Positions 3,020 to 18,903 of a stretch of DNA of 64,000 bases are shown here, piece by piece. The position numbers were made by a program, and so were the translations under genes. Below the pieces are notes generated by a model. That model worked only from the letters and a program-made list of their open reading frames with translations, was not told the origin of the DNA and ran no database searches. The stretch is from a virus. Position 1 is the first letter of the stretch. Each line of letters starts with the position of its first letter. The DNA is taken from positions 1 to 64,000 of IMG/VR virus record IMGVR_UViG_3300010412_000005; one strand, given 5' to 3'.

Positions 3020-3316
3020 ATGAGTTTTTACACGCCTAACGTCACACACCCGCAGATCACCCGCCGCTGGTCTGGCCAAGCGACGGCAGGTGCTGCAGCT
3101 GCTCCGCTTTCAACGTCCAAGAAATACTGCGCCAATGGAGTATGGGTGAAGAATGAGGACTCCACTGAGAACGTCATTGTCTTGGCACCAAGCGAAACAG
3201 CTGGGTTTCTGTTGTCAGCCAACACATCCAGATTTTTCCCAGACGACGACGTCAGTAAGATCTTCATCCAAAGAGCAGGATCAGCAGATGTCACTGTAAG
3301 CTACTGGGGTGGATAG
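3020..3316 (+). CDS. small beta-rich putative virion protein
   Basis: tight operon spacing; alternating beta pattern (VWVKN...GFLL...KIFIQ...VTVSYW). Confidence 0.65.
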   Translation: MSFYTPNVTHPQITRRWSGQATAGAAAAPLSTSKKYCANGVWVKNEDSTENVIVLAPSETAGFLLSANTSRFFPDDDVSKIFIQRAGSADVTVSYWGG

Positions 3317-3318
3317 TT

Positions 3319-3825
3319 ATGAGCAGATTACGGCACAGACGCAGATGGGTGCCGCTGTTGGTTGCTGAAGATGCCTCAGCTGGCGACCCTGGTGATAACG
3401 ACAACGATCCTGGGGTGACTCCTGAGCCGCCTTACGAGCCGCCTCCAGTTCTTGGTCCTCCAGATGATCCAGGTGTGTTGGGTCCAGGTGTCATTGATGA
3501 GTGGGAGCAGTATGCTGACGAAGATCCAATCAATGGGAAGCGACTTGGCTGGTCCTTGGACGATCCGACAATGCAGTGGCTCACTGCATGGGGAGCAAGG
3601 ACAATCAGGCCAGATGTGCTTGGATTTGATGACTTCGAGTCCTACACAGCAGATGTCAATGTGAATGGCCTTTCTGGTGGAGAAGCTTGGGGTGGAGCTT
3701 TCATCGCGAGAAGAGTTCGAGTTCCGCGATCAAACGGATGGACAGATTTCTCAGATGCAACCACAAGCTCTGACATCAATGGTCAGACCAGCGGAGACTG
3801 GAGTGGTGCTTTCATTGCGAGGTAA
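3319..3825 (+). CDS. Pro/Asp-linker protein with three D-[FW]-E-x-Y...NG...W..A..[AI]R repeats
   Basis: repeats IDEWEQYADEDPING..WLTAWGAR, FDDFESYTADVNVNGLSGGEAWGGAFIAR, WTDFSDATTSSDINGQTSGDWSGAFIAR. Confidence 0.75.
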   Translation: MSRLRHRRRWVPLLVAEDASAGDPGDNDNDPGVTPEPPYEPPPVLGPPDDPGVLGPGVIDEWEQYADEDPINGKRLGWSLDDPTMQWLTAWGARTIRPDVLGFDDFESYTADVNVNGLSGGEAWGGAFIARRVRVPRSNGWTDFSDATTSSDINGQTSGDWSGAFIAR

Positions 3826-3827
3826 CA

Positions 3828-4595
3828 ATGGCAAAAGGTGCTAAAATCAAACTACTGACTAAGGGTGTTGAGACTAGACTTCATGGTGCTATATCTGGTT
3901 CTCAAATCTTACGCAGCATCGGAAGCTCATGGAATGAGATCAGAATAGGAATCTGCGGAAGTCTTGTTGGAGATATAGGAATTGCTCCTCCATACGGCAC
4001 AAGGATATGGCTTGGTGTGTGTTCTGGTAACACGAACGCCATTGGAGATACGACTGTAGGACATGCAGTCGGATGGGGTGCCATAGATCCTGCGTTAACA
4101 CCTACACGGTGGGCAACAAATAGGTGGTCAAGAGCAAATTCAGCAGGTGCATCAACTGGATGTTACTACGTCTATACGTCTGGTATATTCGCTTACGGAG
4201 CGAAGTTCATTGGGAGCAATTTATCGCCAGTTGCTGTCACTGGAACTCTTGGTGGAATCTACCTTTTCGGTGATATCAACGATTCGTCATTCGCAAACTA
4301 CATCAGATGCTGCTTGTGGGTTAACATCCAAAAGGGCTCTCCGAACTTTACGTTTACTGAATATGGATATCCACAAATATCAGCTGGGCCGTCAGCTCTA
4401 GTAACAAGAGACCAATTTATTGTTCAGATGACAGCCGCTGCTCCAAGCTTCACAGGGCATACACGTATAGCGACAACACGGACTCTCGCTGTTGATGAAG
4501 GAGCAGATGGAACACTTGATCATGTAAATATCATGTGGTCATGCGAAAAGCCTGCCCTTTACATTGATGCTCTTGTAGTTGCTCAAATCTCATAG
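3828..4595 (+). CDS. beta-sandwich (lectin-like) putative receptor-binding protein, paralog 1
   Basis: shares W..IRIG, LG.CSGNTN..GD.T..HAVG, SPN[FW], TLAVDE..DGTLDH with the next two genes. Confidence 0.75.
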   Translation: MAKGAKIKLLTKGVETRLHGAISGSQILRSIGSSWNEIRIGICGSLVGDIGIAPPYGTRIWLGVCSGNTNAIGDTTVGHAVGWGAIDPALTPTRWATNRWSRANSAGASTGCYYVYTSGIFAYGAKFIGSNLSPVAVTGTLGGIYLFGDINDSSFANYIRCCLWVNIQKGSPNFTFTEYGYPQISAGPSALVTRDQFIVQMTAAAPSFTGHTRIATTRTLAVDEGADGTLDHVNIMWSCEKPALYIDALVVAQIS

Positions 4596-4598
4596 GTC

Positions 4599-5384
4599 AT
4601 GGATTACCAAGAAGGCAAAATAAGAAGCGTCACAGTTGGTGCTGTGACCAGAAAGCACGCCCACGTTCGCAACTTCCAGCTGATCAGGAAGCTGTCAACC
4701 GACGATTGGAACATCATCAGAATCGGTGTTGCATTCCACATGCAGAACGACACTGAGAGATACCCTCTCATGGGACTTCGATTTTTTCTTGGCCTGTGCT
4801 CTGGAAACACCAACTGCATGGGCGATGCGACTGTAACCCATGCCGTCGGAGCAGGCACGCTGGCGCAGTCTCATGGAGGATACGAAGATTTCAGGATGCA
4901 GAGGATCGTTGGGACCGCAAACACGTTCGACCTGTATATGAACGGAGAGTCAACCGGCGCGATGGTGTTCAAGGGCGATCCATACAATGCGGCAGTTCTG
5001 GCTTCTGGAACTCTGACCGCAACAATCGGTCTTGTTGGAACCCAGGATGGTCGAACTGGGACTCCATATGCCAACTACTTCAGGTGTTTCTTCGTCATTG
5101 AAATGGAAAGAGGATCTCCAAACTGGAACATCAGGGCAGGGTCTTATGCTCTAAACACGTCTCCAGCTCAGTATGCTGTGAACACTGCTGACGTGTTCAA
5201 AGAGCAGATGCTTGCACCAGACACAGGGGCAATATGGGCAGCTCACGCTCCAACAAGCTGGACTACCAGGACGCTTGCTGTAGATGAGGCTGGAGACGGA
5301 ACGCTCGATCACTTGAACTTGGTCTACGATGCTGAATTTCCGTCGATGTATGTTGACCAACTAATGGCAGTAAGGATGGCGTGA
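4599..5384 (+). CDS. beta-sandwich (lectin-like) putative receptor-binding protein, paralog 2
   Basis: WNIIRIG, FFLGLCSGNTNCMGDATVTHAVG, GSPNW, TLAVDEAGDGTLDH, MYVDQLMA. Confidence 0.75.
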   Translation: MDYQEGKIRSVTVGAVTRKHAHVRNFQLIRKLSTDDWNIIRIGVAFHMQNDTERYPLMGLRFFLGLCSGNTNCMGDATVTHAVGAGTLAQSHGGYEDFRMQRIVGTANTFDLYMNGESTGAMVFKGDPYNAAVLASGTLTATIGLVGTQDGRTGTPYANYFRCFFVIEMERGSPNWNIRAGSYALNTSPAQYAVNTADVFKEQMLAPDTGAIWAAHAPTSWTTRTLAVDEAGDGTLDHLNLVYDAEFPSMYVDQLMAVRMA

Positions 5385-5385
5385 T

Positions 5386-6129
5386 ATGTCAGCAAACGTA
5401 AATGATATAACGATCAACTCGATCACCGAAAGGTTGGTCGAGTTAAGCGCTGGTCAGATCTTCGTTCCGCTGAATACAAACACGTGGGACAGACTCAGGG
5501 TAGCTGCTCGTATTTCGATGTGGAATGATCCTGGTGCTGCAGCTTCAACAGGAAGGTTTTTCCTTGGATTGTCCAACGGAAATGCTGCTGGCATGGGTGA
5601 CGCAACTCCAGGACACTGCATAGGGTGGGGCAACTTTGACGTTACTGGCGCGTGGATGGCTATGTCTTCGCGAACTGTATCTGGGACGAGGGTCACATAC
5701 GCTACCTCTGCATTTGCATATCCATGTAAGTTTGTATCTGGAACACCGACTGTAGCCTCTAGCTTTCTTCATTATACAAGGCTCAACGGTAACCTTGCAG
5801 CTCCTACATCTTGGAATCAGTCTTTTGTGACTGTTGAATTCACAAGAGCATCTCCAAACTGGGGTATATCTGGTTGTTGGAACACGAGTGTTTGCGAAAA
5901 CGGAACATCGTATGATGCCAGAATCTTAGCTCAGAACAATATCAGGGGTGTTGCATCATCAAACACAGACTCATTCGCAACATGGGCTGACTACAACAAT
6001 GAGCCACAGGTTACCGTTGCCGTAGATGAAGGAACTGATGGTGTATTGAATCATCTACATCTTTACTGGAATCTATCGAGTCCATACATGAGAGTTCTAG
6101 ATCTCATGGCCTTCGAGATTGCGCCTTGA
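5386..6129 (+). CDS. beta-sandwich (lectin-like) putative receptor-binding protein, paralog 3
   Basis: WDRLRVA, FFLGLSNGNAAGMGDATPGHCIGWG, ASPNW, TVAVDEGTDGVLNH. Confidence 0.75.
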   Translation: MSANVNDITINSITERLVELSAGQIFVPLNTNTWDRLRVAARISMWNDPGAAASTGRFFLGLSNGNAAGMGDATPGHCIGWGNFDVTGAWMAMSSRTVSGTRVTYATSAFAYPCKFVSGTPTVASSFLHYTRLNGNLAAPTSWNQSFVTVEFTRASPNWGISGCWNTSVCENGTSYDARILAQNNIRGVASSNTDSFATWADYNNEPQVTVAVDEGTDGVLNHLHLYWNLSSPYMRVLDLMAFEIAP

Positions 6130-6136
6130 ACAAAAA

Positions 6137-6667
6137 ATGGCACCCGAACAACATAGCGTTGCCGCCTCAAATGACGACAAACGAGAGATCTTTGCCCAAC
6201 TTCATGAGCACTCCGTCGCAATCGCAAGCTTACAGAGCGGTGTTGAAGGGCTCGCAAGCAGCACGGAAAGCGGCTTCCGAAACATCCAAACTCAGATTGA
6301 GAATCTCACGAATTCGATCAGAGCGCAGCGACCACAATTCGGAGTCATCTCATCAATCCTCATTGCAGCTGCGGCACTCATTGTCTCCTTGGCAGGTTTC
6401 GCTCTCAAAAGCGCGGTGCTTCCTGTCCAGCATGATATCGTCTCGAACAAAGAGCTGAACCAAGTTGTCCATGATACTCAAGACTCAAGGATAAAGATTC
6501 TGGAAGATGCCTATCATGCGATGCTTCGTGAACATGGATCAATGGAGTCGAAGATTGCAGAGAATGCAAAGATCATTGATGAGTTTAACAGGCTGATGCT
6601 TCAGAACTATGTCAGCGGCAGCGTTGGAGCTGCAGCAAGCAAACACCAACACACAACAACTGAATGA
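6137..6667 (+). CDS. single-pass membrane protein with coiled coils (lysis-type?)
   Basis: hydrophobic FGVISSILIAAAALIVSLAGFAL flanked by heptad-rich segments. Confidence 0.65.
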   Translation: MAPEQHSVAASNDDKREIFAQLHEHSVAIASLQSGVEGLASSTESGFRNIQTQIENLTNSIRAQRPQFGVISSILIAAAALIVSLAGFALKSAVLPVQHDIVSNKELNQVVHDTQDSRIKILEDAYHAMLREHGSMESKIAENAKIIDEFNRLMLQNYVSGSVGAAASKHQHTTTE

Positions 6668-7137
6668 AGAAATACCTAACAATGATCGGGCTGGCGGCTA
6701 CGCTGGCGTTATTCACCGGCTGCACCACCACTGACCCGGTTACAGGGGAGCGAGTATTCGATCCTGTGAAGACGGATCTGCTCGTAAGCAGCTTGGAAGA
6801 TGGCTTGACCGAAGTGGTCTACTGGACCGCTAAGGCAGATGAGAACACGGCATCTGCGTATCGAATTGCGCATAGCGTTCTGAACACGCTTGTTGTCGAG
6901 GGAGAGACAGTGAACCGAGAGCTGATCAAACAGAGGCTGTCTACTGTGGCAATCGCTGGAATGTCACCTGAAGACTCGAAGGTGTTGATTACTCGGATTA
7001 CGGATATTGTTCTTGGCAAGTGGGACATCATCGCCAATTCGTATATGCGTGTTGGAATTGGCGAGTCACAGGCGGCTAGTATTGCGCTCAACACCTGTAG
7101 AAACGCCATCTTTCGTGGCTTGTTGATGCTCAACTGA
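6664..7137 (+). CDS. predicted lipoprotein
   Basis: MKK + hydrophobic stretch + lipobox LFTG-C. Confidence 0.75.
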   Translation: MKKYLTMIGLAATLALFTGCTTTDPVTGERVFDPVKTDLLVSSLEDGLTEVVYWTAKADENTASAYRIAHSVLNTLVVEGETVNRELIKQRLSTVAIAGMSPEDSKVLITRITDIVLGKWDIIANSYMRVGIGESQAASIALNTCRNAIFRGLLMLN

Positions 7138-7640
7138 TGAAACTTTGGCTGACCATAGCAACAGCCAGCATTGTCCTTCTGGGTGTGAGCTGCACCCAGT
7201 TGGACAATGCATTGCTTGAGCAGCAGGTTAAGGAAGAGATCACCGTCCAAACAAATCTTGTAACCCAGCTTCTTCCCAATGGCCTGCTGTTCACCAATGT
7301 GTTCGTCATGGTGTCGACCAACTACTACACCAACTACGTGACGAACCCAAATGCAGAGGCTGTGGTGAAAGCTACAGACATGATTCCAGTCTACGGAGGG
7401 CTGATCTCTGCAATCGGAACAACCTTGCTTGGGTTGTATCGAGCTGTTAGAAACAAGAAAATTGCAGAAGCGACAGTTATTGCTGTTGATGCTGGACGAA
7501 GAGCTGTTCGTGCTTACGAAAATGGTGGAGCTAAAGTCGATGGGATTTTCAAAGATGCAATGGTGAGGGAGCAACAGGCTCTTGGAATGCAGCCAGACAT
7601 CACCGAAATAGTCAGAAGAAAAACCCAAAAAACGACATGA
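7137..7640 (+). CDS. predicted lipoprotein with internal hydrophobic helix
   Basis: lipobox LGVS-C; YGGLISAIGTTLLGLY helix; TN-rich segment. Confidence 0.7.
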   Translation: MKLWLTIATASIVLLGVSCTQLDNALLEQQVKEEITVQTNLVTQLLPNGLLFTNVFVMVSTNYYTNYVTNPNAEAVVKATDMIPVYGGLISAIGTTLLGLYRAVRNKKIAEATVIAVDAGRRAVRAYENGGAKVDGIFKDAMVREQQALGMQPDITEIVRRKTQKTT

Positions 7641-8583: not shown

Positions 8584-10104
8584 TCACACAGGCAGGAGGG
8601 AGGATTTCACGATCCTCCCTTCTGTTTTTCCCACCCGTGCATTCCACACGTCCTGCAGTAGCATCGCAGGCTCTTCGCCAGATAGGAGGTAGGTCAAGGA
8701 GTCGAATACGTGCCTGAACTTCGATGGTGCTATCGGCTTACTCAGCGTTGAACCTGCACGCAACGCCTTGACCATCTCTATCGTCATCTTGCACTTCGCG
8801 CTGATCATGATCCTATCCTCATGCAGCAGCACCCTGAGCAAGTTGATTCGCTTCTGGATCGAGCCTGGGAACTTTGGAGCTGCCTGAAGGATCACGTTGG
8901 TCTCTGAGTATTTGTAGACCAGATTGGCGTCGTATCCCTCAGCGCCAGCCCTGTAGTTCGTCAGCGCAGCTGAGTCAGACCAATGCCTCCATACTGGCAT
9001 CTTCTTGCACTGCCTGTTCCACAGATCGAAGTGCTCCATAAACTCATCGACAAACTCTGACAGGCCCATATTGTCATCTGTCAGATGGTTCACTTCGTCG
9101 AGAATCCAGTAGATCTTTCCGTTTCCATCTCCAGGATCAATAACCTCAGCTATGTGCGTGCTGTGATACTTGTCACCCAAGTCCCACCCGCTAAACAGTT
9201 GGTTGCAGTTCTCAGTTGGAAGGAGAACTTCCCAGTCGTCCTTGTTGACGAGCGAACAGTCACCGACGACATGGACTTCTTCCCTGAACTGCTCCCCGAA
9301 TAGCGCACCCTTTGACGCTCGCGTCCACCTTCCTTCGATGTAGCGTGCGTATAGATCCTTGTCGTGGGCAAATCTCTGAATCAAAGCCTCTCGTTCCTCA
9401 TCGCTCAGATACGGGTTGTCATGGATCATGACTTCGATCAGGGCGAGCTGCCTTTGCAGCGCTGGAGTCTTTGAGTCTTGGTCTACGCGATCCTCATACC
9501 ACAGCTTGTAGATCCAGGAATCGGGTCCGTCGTCCGCAGGATTAGTGTCGGACAGCCATAGGTGACCCCAAAAGTCCAACCCAGGCATCCGTAACTGATC
9601 CGACGTGATGTCAAAGACCAGTCTGCTCCTAAAGTTCGATAGCTCAGCGAAGTAGAACATGCTGAACCGGGTTCCCTTGGCGATTGATTCGACTTCGTTT
9701 TCATTGTCGATTGAGTGGAGCTGGATCTCGGATTCCCCTCCATACTGGTTAGCCAGACGGATATACATCATGCGCGTCTGAGCGTCCTGCTTCGGACCTA
9801 AAGTCCCATCGCTTTTCCTTGTTGTTATCTTGGTTGTCCTGGCGTCTAGCCATTCTGGCAGAACAAGTTCGATGACATCATTCCACACTCCACCCGCCTT
9901 TGCGTTCTTGACGGTTTTGGCAAACATGCCAATTCTGGCTCGTGGCGTCTCAACCGCATGCCGAATCAGCCTATGAAGATTGCCCCATGTCTTCCCAGAC
10001 ATCTTAGGGCCAGATGCAAGAATGCATCGTCCAGGGCTGTTGTAGATCTCCAGCTGTTTGGGCGAGAGTTCTGGATACCAATATCCCTGTGCGTCAATAG
10101 GCAT
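8584..10104 (-). CDS. terL: terminase large subunit
   Basis: PKQ adenine-binding motif, Walker A SGPKMSGKT, DTNP coupling motif, DNPYL, nuclease GWDLG and HVFDSLTY. Confidence 0.92.
   Translation of the reverse strand: MPIDAQGYWYPELSPKQLEIYNSPGRCILASGPKMSGKTWGNLHRLIRHAVETPRARIGMFAKTVKNAKAGGVWNDVIELVLPEWLDARTTKITTRKSDGTLGPKQDAQTRMMYIRLANQYGGESEIQLHSIDNENEVESIAKGTRFSMFYFAELSNFRSRLVFDITSDQLRMPGLDFWGHLWLSDTNPADDGPDSWIYKLWYEDRVDQDSKTPALQRQLALIEVMIHDNPYLSDEEREALIQRFAHDKDLYARYIEGRWTRASKGALFGEQFREEVHVVGDCSLVNKDDWEVLLPTENCNQLFSGWDLGDKYHSTHIAEVIDPGDGNGKIYWILDEVNHLTDDNMGLSEFVDEFMEHFDLWNRQCKKMPVWRHWSDSAALTNYRAGAEGYDANLVYKYSETNVILQAAPKFPGSIQKRINLLRVLLHEDRIMISAKCKMTIEMVKALRAGSTLSKPIAPSKFRHVFDSLTYLLSGEEPAMLLQDVWNARVGKTEGRIVKSSLLPV
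8593..8629 (+). terminator. intrinsic terminator, antisense within the terL 3' end
   Basis: CAGGAGGGAGGAT-ttcacg-ATCCTCCCTTCTG (13 bp, one G-U) followed by TTTTT. Confidence 0.7.
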
Positions 10105-10449: not shown

Positions 10450-10693
10450 CGGAGACGGAACTTTTGACGTAGACATCAGCGCCAAGAACCTGCGCCTGCT
10501 GACAAAAAAGCAGGGAAAGGTCATTACGCTGCTTGACATAGAAGACATTGCGCTGGTTGAACTAGCAGTTGGTAACATAGCATTCAAACCCAAAGTCATC
10601 GTCAAGATCGAGAGGCGCATAACAGCAGAGGACAGGTTTAAGATCGCACGCGAACAGGTCAGGCAGAGAATTAAGGAGCCCCAATTACTATGA
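10316..10693 (+). CDS. hypothetical basic protein
   Basis: GAGGAG 7 nt before ATG 10316; ATGA overlap with the portal gene. Confidence 0.6.
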   Translation: MSRKAPNARILCQKPSLKKEVSTQDLLPQRRKTSRRSAQISLTNNGDGTFDVDISAKNLRLLTKKQGKVITLLDIEDIALVELAVGNIAFKPKVIVKIERRITAEDRFKIAREQVRQRIKEPQLL

Positions 10694-13050
10694 CAAAAGA
10701 TCTCATCGAGAAGCTGAAGCTCACGCCGAAAGACCTGAAGCCGAAGTTCTCCCAAAAGACTTGGCCTGACGGAATTCGCAAGCTGCGCAATCTTGTCAGG
10801 GATCGTATTCAAGAGGGGCGAGACTTCAATCTGTCTGACTTCAAATACTGGTGGGCAATGGACGTTGCCTACGATGCACCTTTCAGGCAGGTCACTCCAA
10901 CCGTCATGGCGTCGTTCCTTGAGACGCTTACGACTCAGGACTATTCAAGCGAGGAAGTGCTGAGAAAGGCTGAGCAGTGGGGTTTGACCAAGTTCATCAG
11001 AACCATCAAGACTGAGGACAAGGAGCGTAAGGAGCTGGATATCCCTGTGATGTTCAAGGTGGTGCTTCCATTGACCAGATCCTATCTGAACATACGCTGG
11101 AGTAAGCTCTACAACGACCGCGACCTGCACCCGCTGCTGAGTTTCGAGCCGATCAAATACACCGAACTGAACCGCATTCGGTGCGAGATCTTGACGGATC
11201 GAGTCGAATACATGTCGCATCAGTTCGGATACCGCTCGACTCTCAGGCAGTGGATCTTCAACGCTCTTCACTACGGTATCTCCATCATGTTCCCAATCGA
11301 GGACTGGTATATGGAGAACGAGCTTTACATCGACGGTGACGGGCTGGTTCAGAAAAAGCTGTTCAAGGAGGGGCTTCGATACAACATCCCACATCCAAGC
11401 CGGGTGTTTTACGATCAAGCTCACAGGATTGGCACGATCAACAGCGATTCAGGCTGTGAATACGCCGGTTACTGGCGCGTAGCTCGATACCGTGATGTCC
11501 TCTATTCTGGCAAGTATTGGAATACTGAGCGTGTCTCGATCTACAGACATGACCTGATCCGAAACAATCGGATATTCTTCAACACTGTCTACCCGTGCCA
11601 GATGGAATTCCCAACTGACAATGCACTTGCTACGACTGGTGCAGGCATGATGGACAGGGAAAGCGGTGTGGCTTACTACACCACCAGTCATGAAGACAAG
11701 GCTGTTGTGCTGACTGACATCTTCATGAAGTTCTCACCGAAGGAATTCGGGCTTGCTGACTACGACGAGCGCATGTGGTTCAGGTTCGTCATGGCCAACG
11801 ACGACGACTTTCTCTACGTCGCTCCAATCTGCTACACTCCTCCTGTTTACATGGGGTATGACTACCATGAAGAGCGCAATAGGAATGCCAGCCTCACGCT
11901 TGAGATCCTTCCGTTCCAGGATCACATGTCCAATCTGCTCACGCAGACGATCCTGGCAGCCAAAAGCAACCTTGCTAAGGCTGTGTTCGTCAACACGGAT
12001 CTCGTCAATCAGCAGTATCTCGACAAGCTTGAGAACATGGGCGAGAACTTCTATCGCTCGCTGAACTTCATTCCGTATTCGCAGCGTCAGGTGATGCTCA
12101 AGCAGGATGACATTCGTCAGGCGTTCTACCCGGTAAACTTCCCTGTGCTCAATACGGTAGAGCTGACGAGCGCGATCAGGCTGCTGCTCGATGCTCTGGA
12201 GCGCGTGCTGGTATTCTCAGCTCAGGAGGTAGGCGCAGTTGCAAGCCATGAGCAGACAGCGGAGGAAGTTCGGCTGATTGGGACGGCTGTCAGCAACCGT
12301 GTCCAGCTGACCGGCAGCTTCGTTGATGACGCAATCGACGCCTGGAAGCGCCAGCTTTACAAGGCATTGATGGGGTATGGTCACAAGGAAGTCTGGGCTC
12401 AGATGCCGTCAGACCCTCCAGTCAACGATGCAATGCTCAAGAAGCTTGGGTTCACCGTGGACGAACCTGGAGTCCCAGGTCTAAGCAACACACTGGTCAA
12501 GGGTCCGCTTTCTTCGTTGGCACTTGAGGGCTTCTCAAGCCGCAGAGACGGTCAGGATCGAATCAACGACGTCCAGATCGCAGCCGCGATGACCAATGTG
12601 CTGCAATTCGCCATGTCCAATCAGGTTGCCAGCTTGGCAATCGGCGCTGATCAGTTCATCAAGGTTGTCAACGAGATCGCCCGTATTGCTGGCCTGCCTC
12701 GCGACTTCAAGCTCGTGGTCAAGAACCGCGAGAAGATCGCTGAGATCGAAGGTGGGCAGCCGAACCAGCAGGAGCAGATGCAGCAGATTCTCGCTCAGTT
12801 GTCTGAGCAGATCCTCAATAAGGCTGGAGAGCAGTCTATGCAGATTGCCCAGGAAACGGTTGGGCAGGCAATGCAGCCTGTGGCTGAAGCCGTCCAGGGC
12901 AACGCTCAGCAAATCGCTGCCACTCAGCAGGCTATCGAGCCGATGTCTACCAGCATCGAAGAAATTGCCACTCGACTCAATGAGCTGATTCAGATAGCAG
13001 GTATGGCTGATGGACGTGAACCTAATAGAAATCAGCAGCCCACAGCGTAA
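10690..13050 (+). CDS. portal protein
   Basis: size, position before scaffold and capsid, TAEEV motif (TATE-like), Gln-rich C-terminal barrel as in P22-type portals. Confidence 0.8.
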   Translation: MTKDLIEKLKLTPKDLKPKFSQKTWPDGIRKLRNLVRDRIQEGRDFNLSDFKYWWAMDVAYDAPFRQVTPTVMASFLETLTTQDYSSEEVLRKAEQWGLTKFIRTIKTEDKERKELDIPVMFKVVLPLTRSYLNIRWSKLYNDRDLHPLLSFEPIKYTELNRIRCEILTDRVEYMSHQFGYRSTLRQWIFNALHYGISIMFPIEDWYMENELYIDGDGLVQKKLFKEGLRYNIPHPSRVFYDQAHRIGTINSDSGCEYAGYWRVARYRDVLYSGKYWNTERVSIYRHDLIRNNRIFFNTVYPCQMEFPTDNALATTGAGMMDRESGVAYYTTSHEDKAVVLTDIFMKFSPKEFGLADYDERMWFRFVMANDDDFLYVAPICYTPPVYMGYDYHEERNRNASLTLEILPFQDHMSNLLTQTILAAKSNLAKAVFVNTDLVNQQYLDKLENMGENFYRSLNFIPYSQRQVMLKQDDIRQAFYPVNFPVLNTVELTSAIRLLLDALERVLVFSAQEVGAVASHEQTAEEVRLIGTAVSNRVQLTGSFVDDAIDAWKRQLYKALMGYGHKEVWAQMPSDPPVNDAMLKKLGFTVDEPGVPGLSNTLVKGPLSSLALEGFSSRRDGQDRINDVQIAAAMTNVLQFAMSNQVASLAIGADQFIKVVNEIARIAGLPRDFKLVVKNREKIAEIEGGQPNQQEQMQQILAQLSEQILNKAGEQSMQIAQETVGQAMQPVAEAVQGNAQQIAATQQAIEPMSTSIEEIATRLNELIQIAGMADGREPNRNQQPTA

Positions 13051-18180: not shown

Positions 18181-18903
18181 ATGCCCTCACCAGTAAGACC
18201 CAACGACCTTTGCTCACTGATTCCTGGAGCGTCTGATCCAGCGTGTCAGTCTGTGAAGTCAGTGTTTCGCGAGATTCCAAATCTAATCTGCGACTTCCTG
18301 TCGTGGATGCTTGATGCAAATGGAAATCTGAGCGACGACTTTATCGCCGACATTGGCGCAACTCTGTCTCCTCCAGGTGCGATCATTGACTATGGCGGCA
18401 TAGCTATTCCTGATGGTTGGCTGCTCTGTAATGGTCAGGCTGTCAGCAGGACAACCTACGCATCCCTGTTTGCTACGATTGGGACCATATGGGGCTCAGG
18501 AGATGGAACAACTACCTTCAATGTTCCTAACCTTCAGAAGCGTTTCACCATTGGATTGTTCACTGGTGTGAACATTGGTGACTTTGGTGGGAGTGCTGAT
18601 GCTGTGGTGTTAAATCATAGTCATGGTTATGGTCGCTTTCAGCTTGGAAACGACAACGTGTGGCTTACTATGGAAAGCTACATAATGCCTGAGACCATGA
18701 AGGCTGGGTTTGTTCGTGGTGATGGTTCAAGCTGGGGAGGAACAACCACACTAACTGAGGGAACAGAGTTTGCTGATGATAACTCGTCTGGACCAAACCG
18801 ACCTGGATTGAAGACCACTATCCCAATCCCTGAAGACAACGCGTCTGGGACTGACCTGAATCTGCCGCCTTACGCTGTAGTCTACAAGATCATCAAGACA
18901 TAA
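18181..18903 (+). CDS. phage tail collar domain protein (short fibre)
   Basis: PPGAIIDYGG..IPDGWLLCNGQAVSRTTYASLFATIGT.WG.GDG.TTFNVPNL and C-terminal NLPPYAVVYKIIK. Confidence 0.92.
   Translation: MPSPVRPNDLCSLIPGASDPACQSVKSVFREIPNLICDFLSWMLDANGNLSDDFIADIGATLSPPGAIIDYGGIAIPDGWLLCNGQAVSRTTYASLFATIGTIWGSGDGTTTFNVPNLQKRFTIGLFTGVNIGDFGGSADAVVLNHSHGYGRFQLGNDNVWLTMESYIMPETMKAGFVRGDGSSWGGTTTLTEGTEFADDNSSGPNRPGLKTTIPIPEDNASGTDLNLPPYAVVYKIIKT

Follow-up and report, generated by a model that had tools for sequence, protein, structure and literature searches.

Does a small phage gene that carries three short repeats encode the scaffold for the products of the three paralogous genes directly behind it? 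The question is raised by positions 3319-6129 of a 64,000-nt stretch of viral DNA (hereafter the window), i.e. positions 1 to 64,000 of IMG/VR record IMGVR_UViG_3300010412_000005. The source record is a complete virus of 76,545 bp with direct terminal repeats, from an uncultured phage. We refer to the repeat gene as the hub, to the three paralogs as the heads, and to all four as the cassette. The cassette probably encodes an adhesin module of the hub-and-head, or rope-and-bead, type, in which each repeat of the hub holds one lectin-like head. Under this reading, we infer that hub and heads bind each other physically, one repeat to each head and by strand addition, that they are attached to the virion, and that they act in the binding of glycans or receptors.

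Hub repeats and lectin-like heads

The cassette comprises the following features.

3319-3825, plus strand: hub open reading frame (ORF), 168 aa
3319-3369, plus strand: basic N-terminal peptide of the hub, residues 1-17, MSRLRHRRRWVPLLVAE, read from the sequence
3370-3492, plus strand: flexible linker of the hub rich in Pro, Asp and Gly, residues 18-58, from its composition and a predicted local distance difference test (pLDDT) of 34-52 in the hub model
3493-3600, plus strand: repeat 1, residues 59-94, IDEWEQY...NGKRLGW...WLTAWGAR; repeat hidden Markov model (HMM), i-E 2e-6
3622-3711, plus strand: repeat 2, residues 102-131, GFDDFESY...NGLSGGEAWGGAFIAR; repeat HMM, i-E 5e-12
3736-3822, plus strand: repeat 3, residues 140-168, GWTDFSDA...NGQTSGDWSGAFIAR; BLASTP against repeat 2, E 3e-8
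3828-4595, plus strand: head paralog 1, 255 aa, family HMM E 2e-51; ConA/legume-lectin-like beta-sandwich
4599-5384, plus strand: head paralog 2, 261 aa, family HMM E 9e-51
5386-6129, plus strand: head paralog 3, the most diverged, 247 aa, family HMM E 6e-50

The three copies of the hub repeat share the motif DxFExY...NG..G.W..AFIAR. Repeat 2 is nearest to the family consensus and is 47% identical to repeat 3, while repeat 1 is the most diverged copy and carries an insertion. Repeats 1 and 2 are matched by a repeat HMM made from other loci; repeat 3 is too diverged for that HMM. Each window repeat is individually conserved in the ortholog P0153 (47% identity), repeat 1 position by position. 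The repeats are preceded by a basic N-terminus that begins MSRLRHRRRW and by the Pro/Asp-rich linker, and repeat 3 reaches the hub C-terminus, 5 nt ahead of the first head gene. Most related hubs likewise have their last repeat at the C-terminus. The hub stop codon (3823-3825) is followed after 2 nt by the ATG of paralog 1 (3828), which is in another frame, and a GAGG is found just 5′ of this ATG.

No model of Pfam, PHROG or NCBIfam matches the hub. Modelled alone with a 19-row alignment, it shows no confident fold (pLDDT 44.5, predicted template modelling score (pTM) 0.29), and the ESM Atlas model of the hub of locus L004, a protein of 124 aa that is paired with one head, is likewise disordered (pLDDT 0.31). 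A reading of the three repeats as a beta-trefoil was rejected on account of these values and of the existence of hubs with two, four and six repeats. The canonical hub in relatives has 124-144 aa and consists of the N-terminal peptide MRSLSLxDLxFLA and three copies of DDMESYxD..LNGGxGWxGAYVxR.

The N-termini of the hubs are of more than one kind. Arg-rich N-termini recur in distant hubs, i.e. MPNPxxxRR in P0153, L012 (4712-4999) and L021 (3539-4984), and RR-rich peptides in L055-L059; a second hub class begins with the MRSLSLxDLxFLA peptide. The N-terminal peptides may dock the hubs to the virion or to an upstream fibre protein, and the basic peptide of the window hub presumably anchors it to the virion or a partner.

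The three heads are mutually 25-34% identical. Paralogs 1 and 2 share 34% of their residues, and for the most distant pair, paralogs 3 and 1, BLASTP gives E 4e-18. Their C-termini are LYIDALVV, MYVDQLMA and MRVLDLMA, respectively, and the whole genome contains no head copies other than these three. The repeat HMM finds no repeat within any of the window paralog ORFs. A first-pass annotation of this DNA, made from the sequence, had described the four ORFs at these positions, a hub with a basic N-terminus, a Pro/Asp linker and three repeats, three paralogs of about 250 aa with shared blocks and the above C-termini that lack the repeat segment, and a junction at 3825/3828 that is out of frame; all of these descriptions proved accurate.

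None of the three paralogs is matched by Pfam, PHROG or NCBIfam, even at E <= 1, and by sequence they fall into no curated lectin, LamG or glucanase family of these libraries. Nevertheless, a profile of seven heads, searched against 1.84 billion cluster representatives, retrieved 1,401 relatives at E <= 1e-3 (counted as representatives at 50% clustering) and 240 at E <= 1e-30. Nearly all members are free-standing proteins of 220-250 aa, and the family of 1,401 representatives is without a name in Pfam, PHROGs and NCBIfam. A head used as tblastn query had no match in 50,697 GenBank phage records, so that no cultured phage of this set carries the module, a word-indexed homologue search returned only near-identical copies, and BFVD contains one unnamed family member.

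Paralog 1 was modelled alone with AlphaFold2 (AF2) and a 150-row alignment, resulting in an all-beta domain with pLDDT 84.9 and pTM 0.87. VIA matches to L-type lectins (ERGIC-53, legume-lectin-like domain, VIP36) have Z values of 9.9-10.6; for 8jp4_A, 5zbt_A and 1r1z_A, Z is 10.6 with a root-mean-square deviation of 3.4 Å over 174-177 residues, and model residues 1-255 are spanned. Foldseek assigns probabilities of 0.99-1.00 to ERGIC-53 and legume lectins. Lectin-like domains in baseplate proteins and receptor-binding proteins of phages were also matched, i.e. the Douge baseplate (Z 9.9), the J-1 Dit CBM2 (Z 8.1) and TM4 gp23 (Z 7.9). As far as the model goes, the fold of the paralogs is a ConA/L-type lectin-like sandwich, as had been proposed from the sequence. 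The fold neighbours are 5-13% identical in sequence. L-type lectins and the ConA-like carbohydrate-binding modules of phages share the beta-sandwich with the window heads over the whole head (Z 8-10.6), but they belong to larger polypeptides, and no repeat scaffold carries them. In phages, the ConA-like fold typically binds host surface glycans.

Conserved blocks of the heads comprise residues 61-80, 161-180 and 221-240. Residues 81-160 are variable among the paralogs as well as family-wide, and they are also the least confident region of the model. A constant framework with variable binding loops would be expected to look like this, and residues 81-160 probably form the ligand-binding loops.

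Repeats and heads in related loci

For comparison, 59 loci were collected from scans of viral contigs and species-representative genomes. ORFs were called in all of them, heads were marked with the family HMM, and repeats with an iteratively built repeat HMM. The comparisons of hub and head draw on about 55 related loci. In about 40 of these, the end of the repeat gene is no more than a few bases away from the head gene. Hub and head share a strand in most loci, the hub coming immediately before the head, and the spacing is -41 to +22 nt, a range that leaves out the loci with a C-terminal domain in the hub, where the longest-ORF call overlaps further. This end-to-start juxtaposition recurs in distant lineages. 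Joining of hub and head by frameshift or readthrough was considered as a general mechanism and rejected, because junction frames 0, 1 and 2 are similarly frequent across loci. As all three frames occur, hub and head are therefore separate coupled genes and not frameshift products.

Fused versions, which the first-pass annotation had suggested looking for in relatives, do exist. The loci L044 (4482-5717), L047 (4497-5732) and L049 (4410-5654) encode single chains of 411-414 aa that contain, in this order, an N-terminal peptide, a collagen-like Gly-X-Y stalk, one repeat, and a head domain, and the repeat abuts the head without a linker. The fusions are indirectly consistent with the view of the first-pass annotation that the repeat motif is a common first segment of ConA/LamG-like domains, although no Pfam family was hit that would confirm it. 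The Gly-X-Y run extends from about residue 33 to 100, and collagen-like adhesin models of NCBIfam match residues 32-101 (E 1.9e-5, below the curated cut-offs). The three chains have the Gly-X-Y stretch and the C-terminal globular head of collagen-like tail fibres, a description that is not applicable to the window. They fill the same syntenic slot as the hub and head of L004 and L008. Because the collagen stalk is trimeric, an assembled fusion fibre would hold three repeats and three heads. Some other heads have N-terminal extensions of about 50 aa, which were also considered as fused repeats and turned out to be signals of the twin-arginine translocation (Tat) type, RRxF[IL]K, instead.

In seven of the eight clusters with several head paralogs, the number of repeats equals the number of heads. 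The repeat:head counts are 3:3 in the window and in L019, 3:3 and then 4:4 in L043, 2:2 in L003, L011 and L035, and 4:2 in L031. Permutation within the set yielded P 0.007, and P was 0.004 when the repeat counts of single-head loci served as the reference distribution, values that are weakened by the fact that several repeat counts were made by eye (the HMM undercounts) and that the loci are phylogenetically non-independent. A quick tree built from 63 head domains unites the three window paralogs with a value of 99 in the Shimodaira-Hasegawa-like approximate likelihood ratio test (SH-aLRT), and within them paralogs 1 and 2 with 96. The L011 pair is recovered with SH-aLRT 96, and the three L019 heads group with L016 (SH-aLRT 94). 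The paralog expansions are therefore independent. In addition, hubs followed by distinct head paralogs differ somewhat more among their own repeats (mean identity 0.43 vs 0.52, one-sided P 0.024).

The most elaborate locus is L043 (1303-7751), on a viral contig of 238 kb, where a 3-repeat hub is followed by seven tandem head paralogs. The third of them (3610-4989, 459 aa) carries four further repeats at its own C-terminus, and four more heads follow, apparently a branched arrangement in which a hub sits on a head.

The gene neighbourhood of several relatives is that of tail fibres. A collagen-like fibre protein is encoded directly upstream of the hub in L008, a central tail fibre J (gpJ-like, E 1.7e-130) downstream of the cassette in L019, and the cassettes of L002, L003 and L025 are likewise part of tail-fibre clusters. 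As the window cassette is far from tail genes, we infer its attachment to the virion from the tail-fibre context in these relatives.

Several observations, in addition to the above-mentioned limits of the statistics, weigh against a virion-borne module with one head per repeat. L031, the sole multi-paralog exception, has 4 repeats and 2 heads. The modal layout is 3 repeats and 1 head gene, found in 14 of the 26 distinct single-head loci, and layouts of 2:1, 4:1 and 6:1 also occur, so that for single-head loci several copies of one head per hub have to be assumed. About eight distinct complete loci (including L020, L032, L038, L041 and L042) have no repeats upstream of the head, and heads can therefore exist without a detectable hub. 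Export signals are present in some relatives. In L010 (4351-5696) the hub has a Sec-like signal and the head a Tat signal, and Tat signals are also found on the heads of L020 (4911-5651) and L027 (4812-5624) and on P0010, P0017, P0031, P0076 and P0080, the Tat motif being RRxF[IL]K; such signals fit poorly with cytoplasmic assembly of a virion. Lastly, the window cassette is about 12 kb away from the recognisable tail genes (collar fibre, 18181-18903) and adjoins genes for membrane proteins.

The frequency of the 3:1 layout means that the supportable rule is one repeat per head subunit, not per gene, with the head subunits supplied by one gene or by matched paralogs. Two expectations of the first-pass annotation are thereby narrowed. 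That repeat number tracks paralog number is true for seven of the eight multi-paralog clusters but not for the loci overall. That hub and heads form one device with one repeat per head is favoured by the adjacency in about 40 loci, the fusions, the matching counts and the independent expansions, whereas one repeat per gene did not stand.

The proposed module and its alternatives

In the proposed module, the 168-aa hub would have no fold of its own and would consist of a basic peptide, a flexible Pro/Asp linker and three repeats of about 30-40 aa. Each repeat would form short beta-strands against one lectin-like head and occupy the place that in the natural fusions belongs to the single repeat N-terminal to the head. 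In most relatives, the product of a single head gene would fill all positions of the hub. In the window phage, the head gene would have been triplicated and diverged, so that the hub would carry three different heads. The order of the heads on the hub would probably be fixed, because each repeat has its own conserved character. With a conserved head framework and variable residues 81-160, up to three binding specificities per stalk would be possible.

A complex prediction with hub residues 52-168 and the three paralogs resulted in hub scores of 0.36, 0.47 and 0.46, compared with 0.00 and 0.00 for unrelated partners; when paralog 2 was swapped for an unrelated protein, the score was still 0.59, and the required margin was missed, so that the prediction counts neither for nor against the module. 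We regard it as rather doubtful that the cassette is a split-domain system, in which one chain donates missing N-terminal strands to several lectin heads and each repeat is specific to its own paralog. If this were true, the number, order and branching of heads (as in L043) would be encoded by the string of repeats, and the system would be a genetically programmable multi-head adhesin without a described counterpart.

How the repeat would contact the head can be envisaged in more than one way. With strict donor-strand complementation, the heads would be incomplete, the first strand or strands of the sandwich being absent, and unstable until a hub repeat fills the gap. The contiguity of repeat and head domain in the fusions, where the first strand would be, is compatible with this option, as are the disorder of the hub alone and the many loci in which the last repeat ends where the head gene starts, as if a gene had been cut inside a domain. 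The alignments with L-type lectins begin about 20-45 residues into the chains (peanut lectin 20; ERGIC-53 69-77), which would be compatible with a missing first strand, but these ranges give only the first and last aligned residues. Paralog 1 alone yields a whole and confident model, which counts against the open groove that the first-pass annotation had expected in a lone paralog. Family members without a detectable hub exist, some of them with a Tat signal of their own, implying an autonomous fold prior to export. Taken together, strict complementation is a tentative option and on the whole unlikely. A further possibility is a closed three-fold assembly of heads, in most relatives a homotrimer and in the window a heterotrimer, that is stapled by the three-repeat hub as a single-chain substitute for a trimeric stalk, in place of independent beads on a string. 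Three is indeed the modal repeat number (14 of 26 single-head loci), the fusions use a collagen stalk, which is an obligate trimer, and the window and L019 have exactly three paralogs. However, hubs with two, four or six repeats are common, and in L043 a 4-repeat hub is followed by four heads in an apparently branched form. ConA-like lectins are typically dimers or tetramers and not trimers, which also argues against a closed trimer. We rate such an assembly as rather unlikely.

Other explanations dispense with the virion or with binding altogether. Hub and heads could be an exported lectin complex of the periplasm or cell surface that acts during infection or lysogeny, e.g. in surface remodelling or superinfection exclusion. 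The Sec and Tat signals on the hub and heads of some relatives look genuine, some loci stem from metagenome-assembled genomes (MAGs) of Verrucomicrobiota and Bdellovibrionales, and the window cassette is remote from the tail genes, with three genes for membrane proteins or lipoproteins (6119-7640) behind it. Yet the window heads have no signal peptide, and the hub N-terminus contains only about seven hydrophobic residues. Relatives are found within tail-fibre clusters beside genes for gpJ-like and collagen-like fibre proteins, the fused forms are typical fibre proteins with a collagen stalk, and the membrane proteins encoded downstream in the window and in L001 are not significantly similar (E 0.13). 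An exported complex is quite improbable for the window. Very improbable, in our estimation, is that the two proteins are mere neighbours, the repeat protein being an independent fibre segment, a glycan-binding repeat or a chaperone that does not bind heads stoichiometrically, and the counts agreeing by chance or ancestry. Repeat and head counts do differ in most loci, and kinship of the loci inflates the apparent significance. However, neighbourhood alone is at odds with fusions that join repeat and head in one chain, with equal counts in seven of eight clusters across independent expansions, and with the strict end-to-start juxtaposition in distant lineages.

The preferred reading, a hub whose repeats each hold one head, has its closest parallel in the rope-and-bead fibres of the phages GP4 (PDB 8JOU), VP1 and A1002, in which a rope with tandem sites is encoded beside one or more separate bead genes; at the level of genes, the same arrangement is found here. 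The podophage A1002 has a rope, gp39, on which eleven bead dimers are docked, each in an augmented beta-sheet with its site; gp40 occupies positions 1-7 and gp41 positions 8-11 (PMC13730344). The rope of podophage GP4, the product of a gene of its own, accommodates five dimers of gp80 (PMC13730344). The beads of GP4 and A1002 have about 140-170 aa and are bound as dimers, whereas the window heads have 247-261 aa (225-260 aa in the family) and are ConA-like. 8JOU is not among the matches listed for the head fold, an absence that does not exclude similarity. The rope motif (here DxFExY...NGGxGW..AYVxR) also differs from that of GP4 and A1002, and the repeats are few (2-6, mostly 3). In contrast to GP4 and A1002, the head family includes single-chain fusions with a collagen stalk and an apparently branched form. 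The small number of repeats, the other bead fold and the other rope motif therefore characterise the module, on genomic evidence, as a variant of the rope-and-bead design.

Anchor-displayed receptor-binding proteins (RBPs) are also known from lactococcal phage TP901-1, in which BppU holds BppL. For branched RBP systems such as gp37/gp38 of Klebsiella phage KP32, two reports describe an anchor that displays further exchangeable RBPs and thereby widens specificity, with structural N-terminal parts and distal parts that bind (PMC13082707, PMC13579863). The anchors of those systems are folded (T4gp10-like, or the C-terminal trimer of BppU) and dock trimeric RBPs, whereas here a disordered tandem-repeat peptide would dock lectin-like heads; Pfam, PHROG and NCBIfam detected no domain related to such anchors in the hub or the heads. 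If the donor-strand mechanism holds, the module would share with chaperone-usher pili (Fim/Pap) the principle that a strand of one chain completes or extends the beta-sandwich of another. The pilins, however, are Ig-like, lack the last strand, and polymerise head to tail with the aid of a chaperone and an usher, whereas in the cassette a single chain would supply several ConA-like heads, each at its N-terminal edge. No periplasmic chaperone or usher families were found among the neighbour genes scanned.

Judged from the sequences, the module would be built from two undescribed protein families, and the comparative evidence for one repeat per head is good. The comparison of the related loci suggests a widespread, unannotated way for environmental phages to build multi-headed attachment devices, and the carrier phages probably infect Verrucomicrobiota and neighbouring groups. 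If one short repeat docks one lectin head, the recently solved rope-and-bead principle would extend to a different bead fold. The number and specificity of heads could then be changed by joint duplication of a gene and a 35-residue repeat, and a compact pair of docking tag and head would be at hand for engineering multivalent binders or phage host range. The fused chain, the split hub with one head, the split hub with matched paralogs, and the apparently branched form make up a natural series that clearly illustrates domain fission and co-expansion.

Gene surroundings and further observations

Additional genes of the window are listed below.

8584-10104, minus strand: terminase
10690-13050: putative portal ORF, our own reading, without a library match
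18181-18903: Phage tail-collar domain protein, 240 aa, Pfam Collar E 5.4e-22

The collar-domain protein is the sole classically recognisable fibre gene of the window, which also contains an ORF of 4,494 aa. The putative portal has no PHROG match and none by tblastn among the 50,697 GenBank phages. By its gene sequences, the phage is very divergent; for most structural ORFs no family was matched. Spacing between the hub and the three head genes is tight, and between 2300 and 8700 neither promoter nor terminator signals rise above chance. The cassette sits between a region with a small-terminase candidate and the three membrane or lipoprotein genes.

These three small membrane-type genes (6119-7640) follow directly 3′ of the heads. 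The first encodes 182 aa with a mid-chain transmembrane helix and a coiled coil, the second 157 aa with a lipoprotein signal, and the third 167 aa with a lipoprotein-like N-terminus and a C-terminal transmembrane helix, a layout similar to that of unimolecular spanins. They may represent a lysis cassette.

Three candidate relationships were not supported. The downstream lipoprotein/transmembrane protein was considered as a conserved partner, and the comparison of window 7137-7640 with L001 6752-7258 was not significant (E 0.13). The 98-aa ORF at 3020-3316 was compared with the N-terminal domain of the L040 hub and with L001 3390-3725, with BLASTP E values of 0.56 and 0.58. The C-terminal domain of L001-type hubs was examined as a hidden homologue of the heads; hhalign gave a probability of 0.2%, and Pfam finds only Ig domains in some of them.

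Two further observations concern individual loci. L055, L056, L057 and L058, on four contigs of MAG OTE_25_metabat_226, encode near-identical pairs of hub and head (branch lengths 0-0.009), which points to a multi-copy element, to variants of a strain or to an artefact of assembly. The 253-aa protein encoded at L001 3725-4486, immediately before the hub, resembles a LamG-type lectin by the look of its translation; if so, the L001 cassette would contain lectin heads of two kinds.

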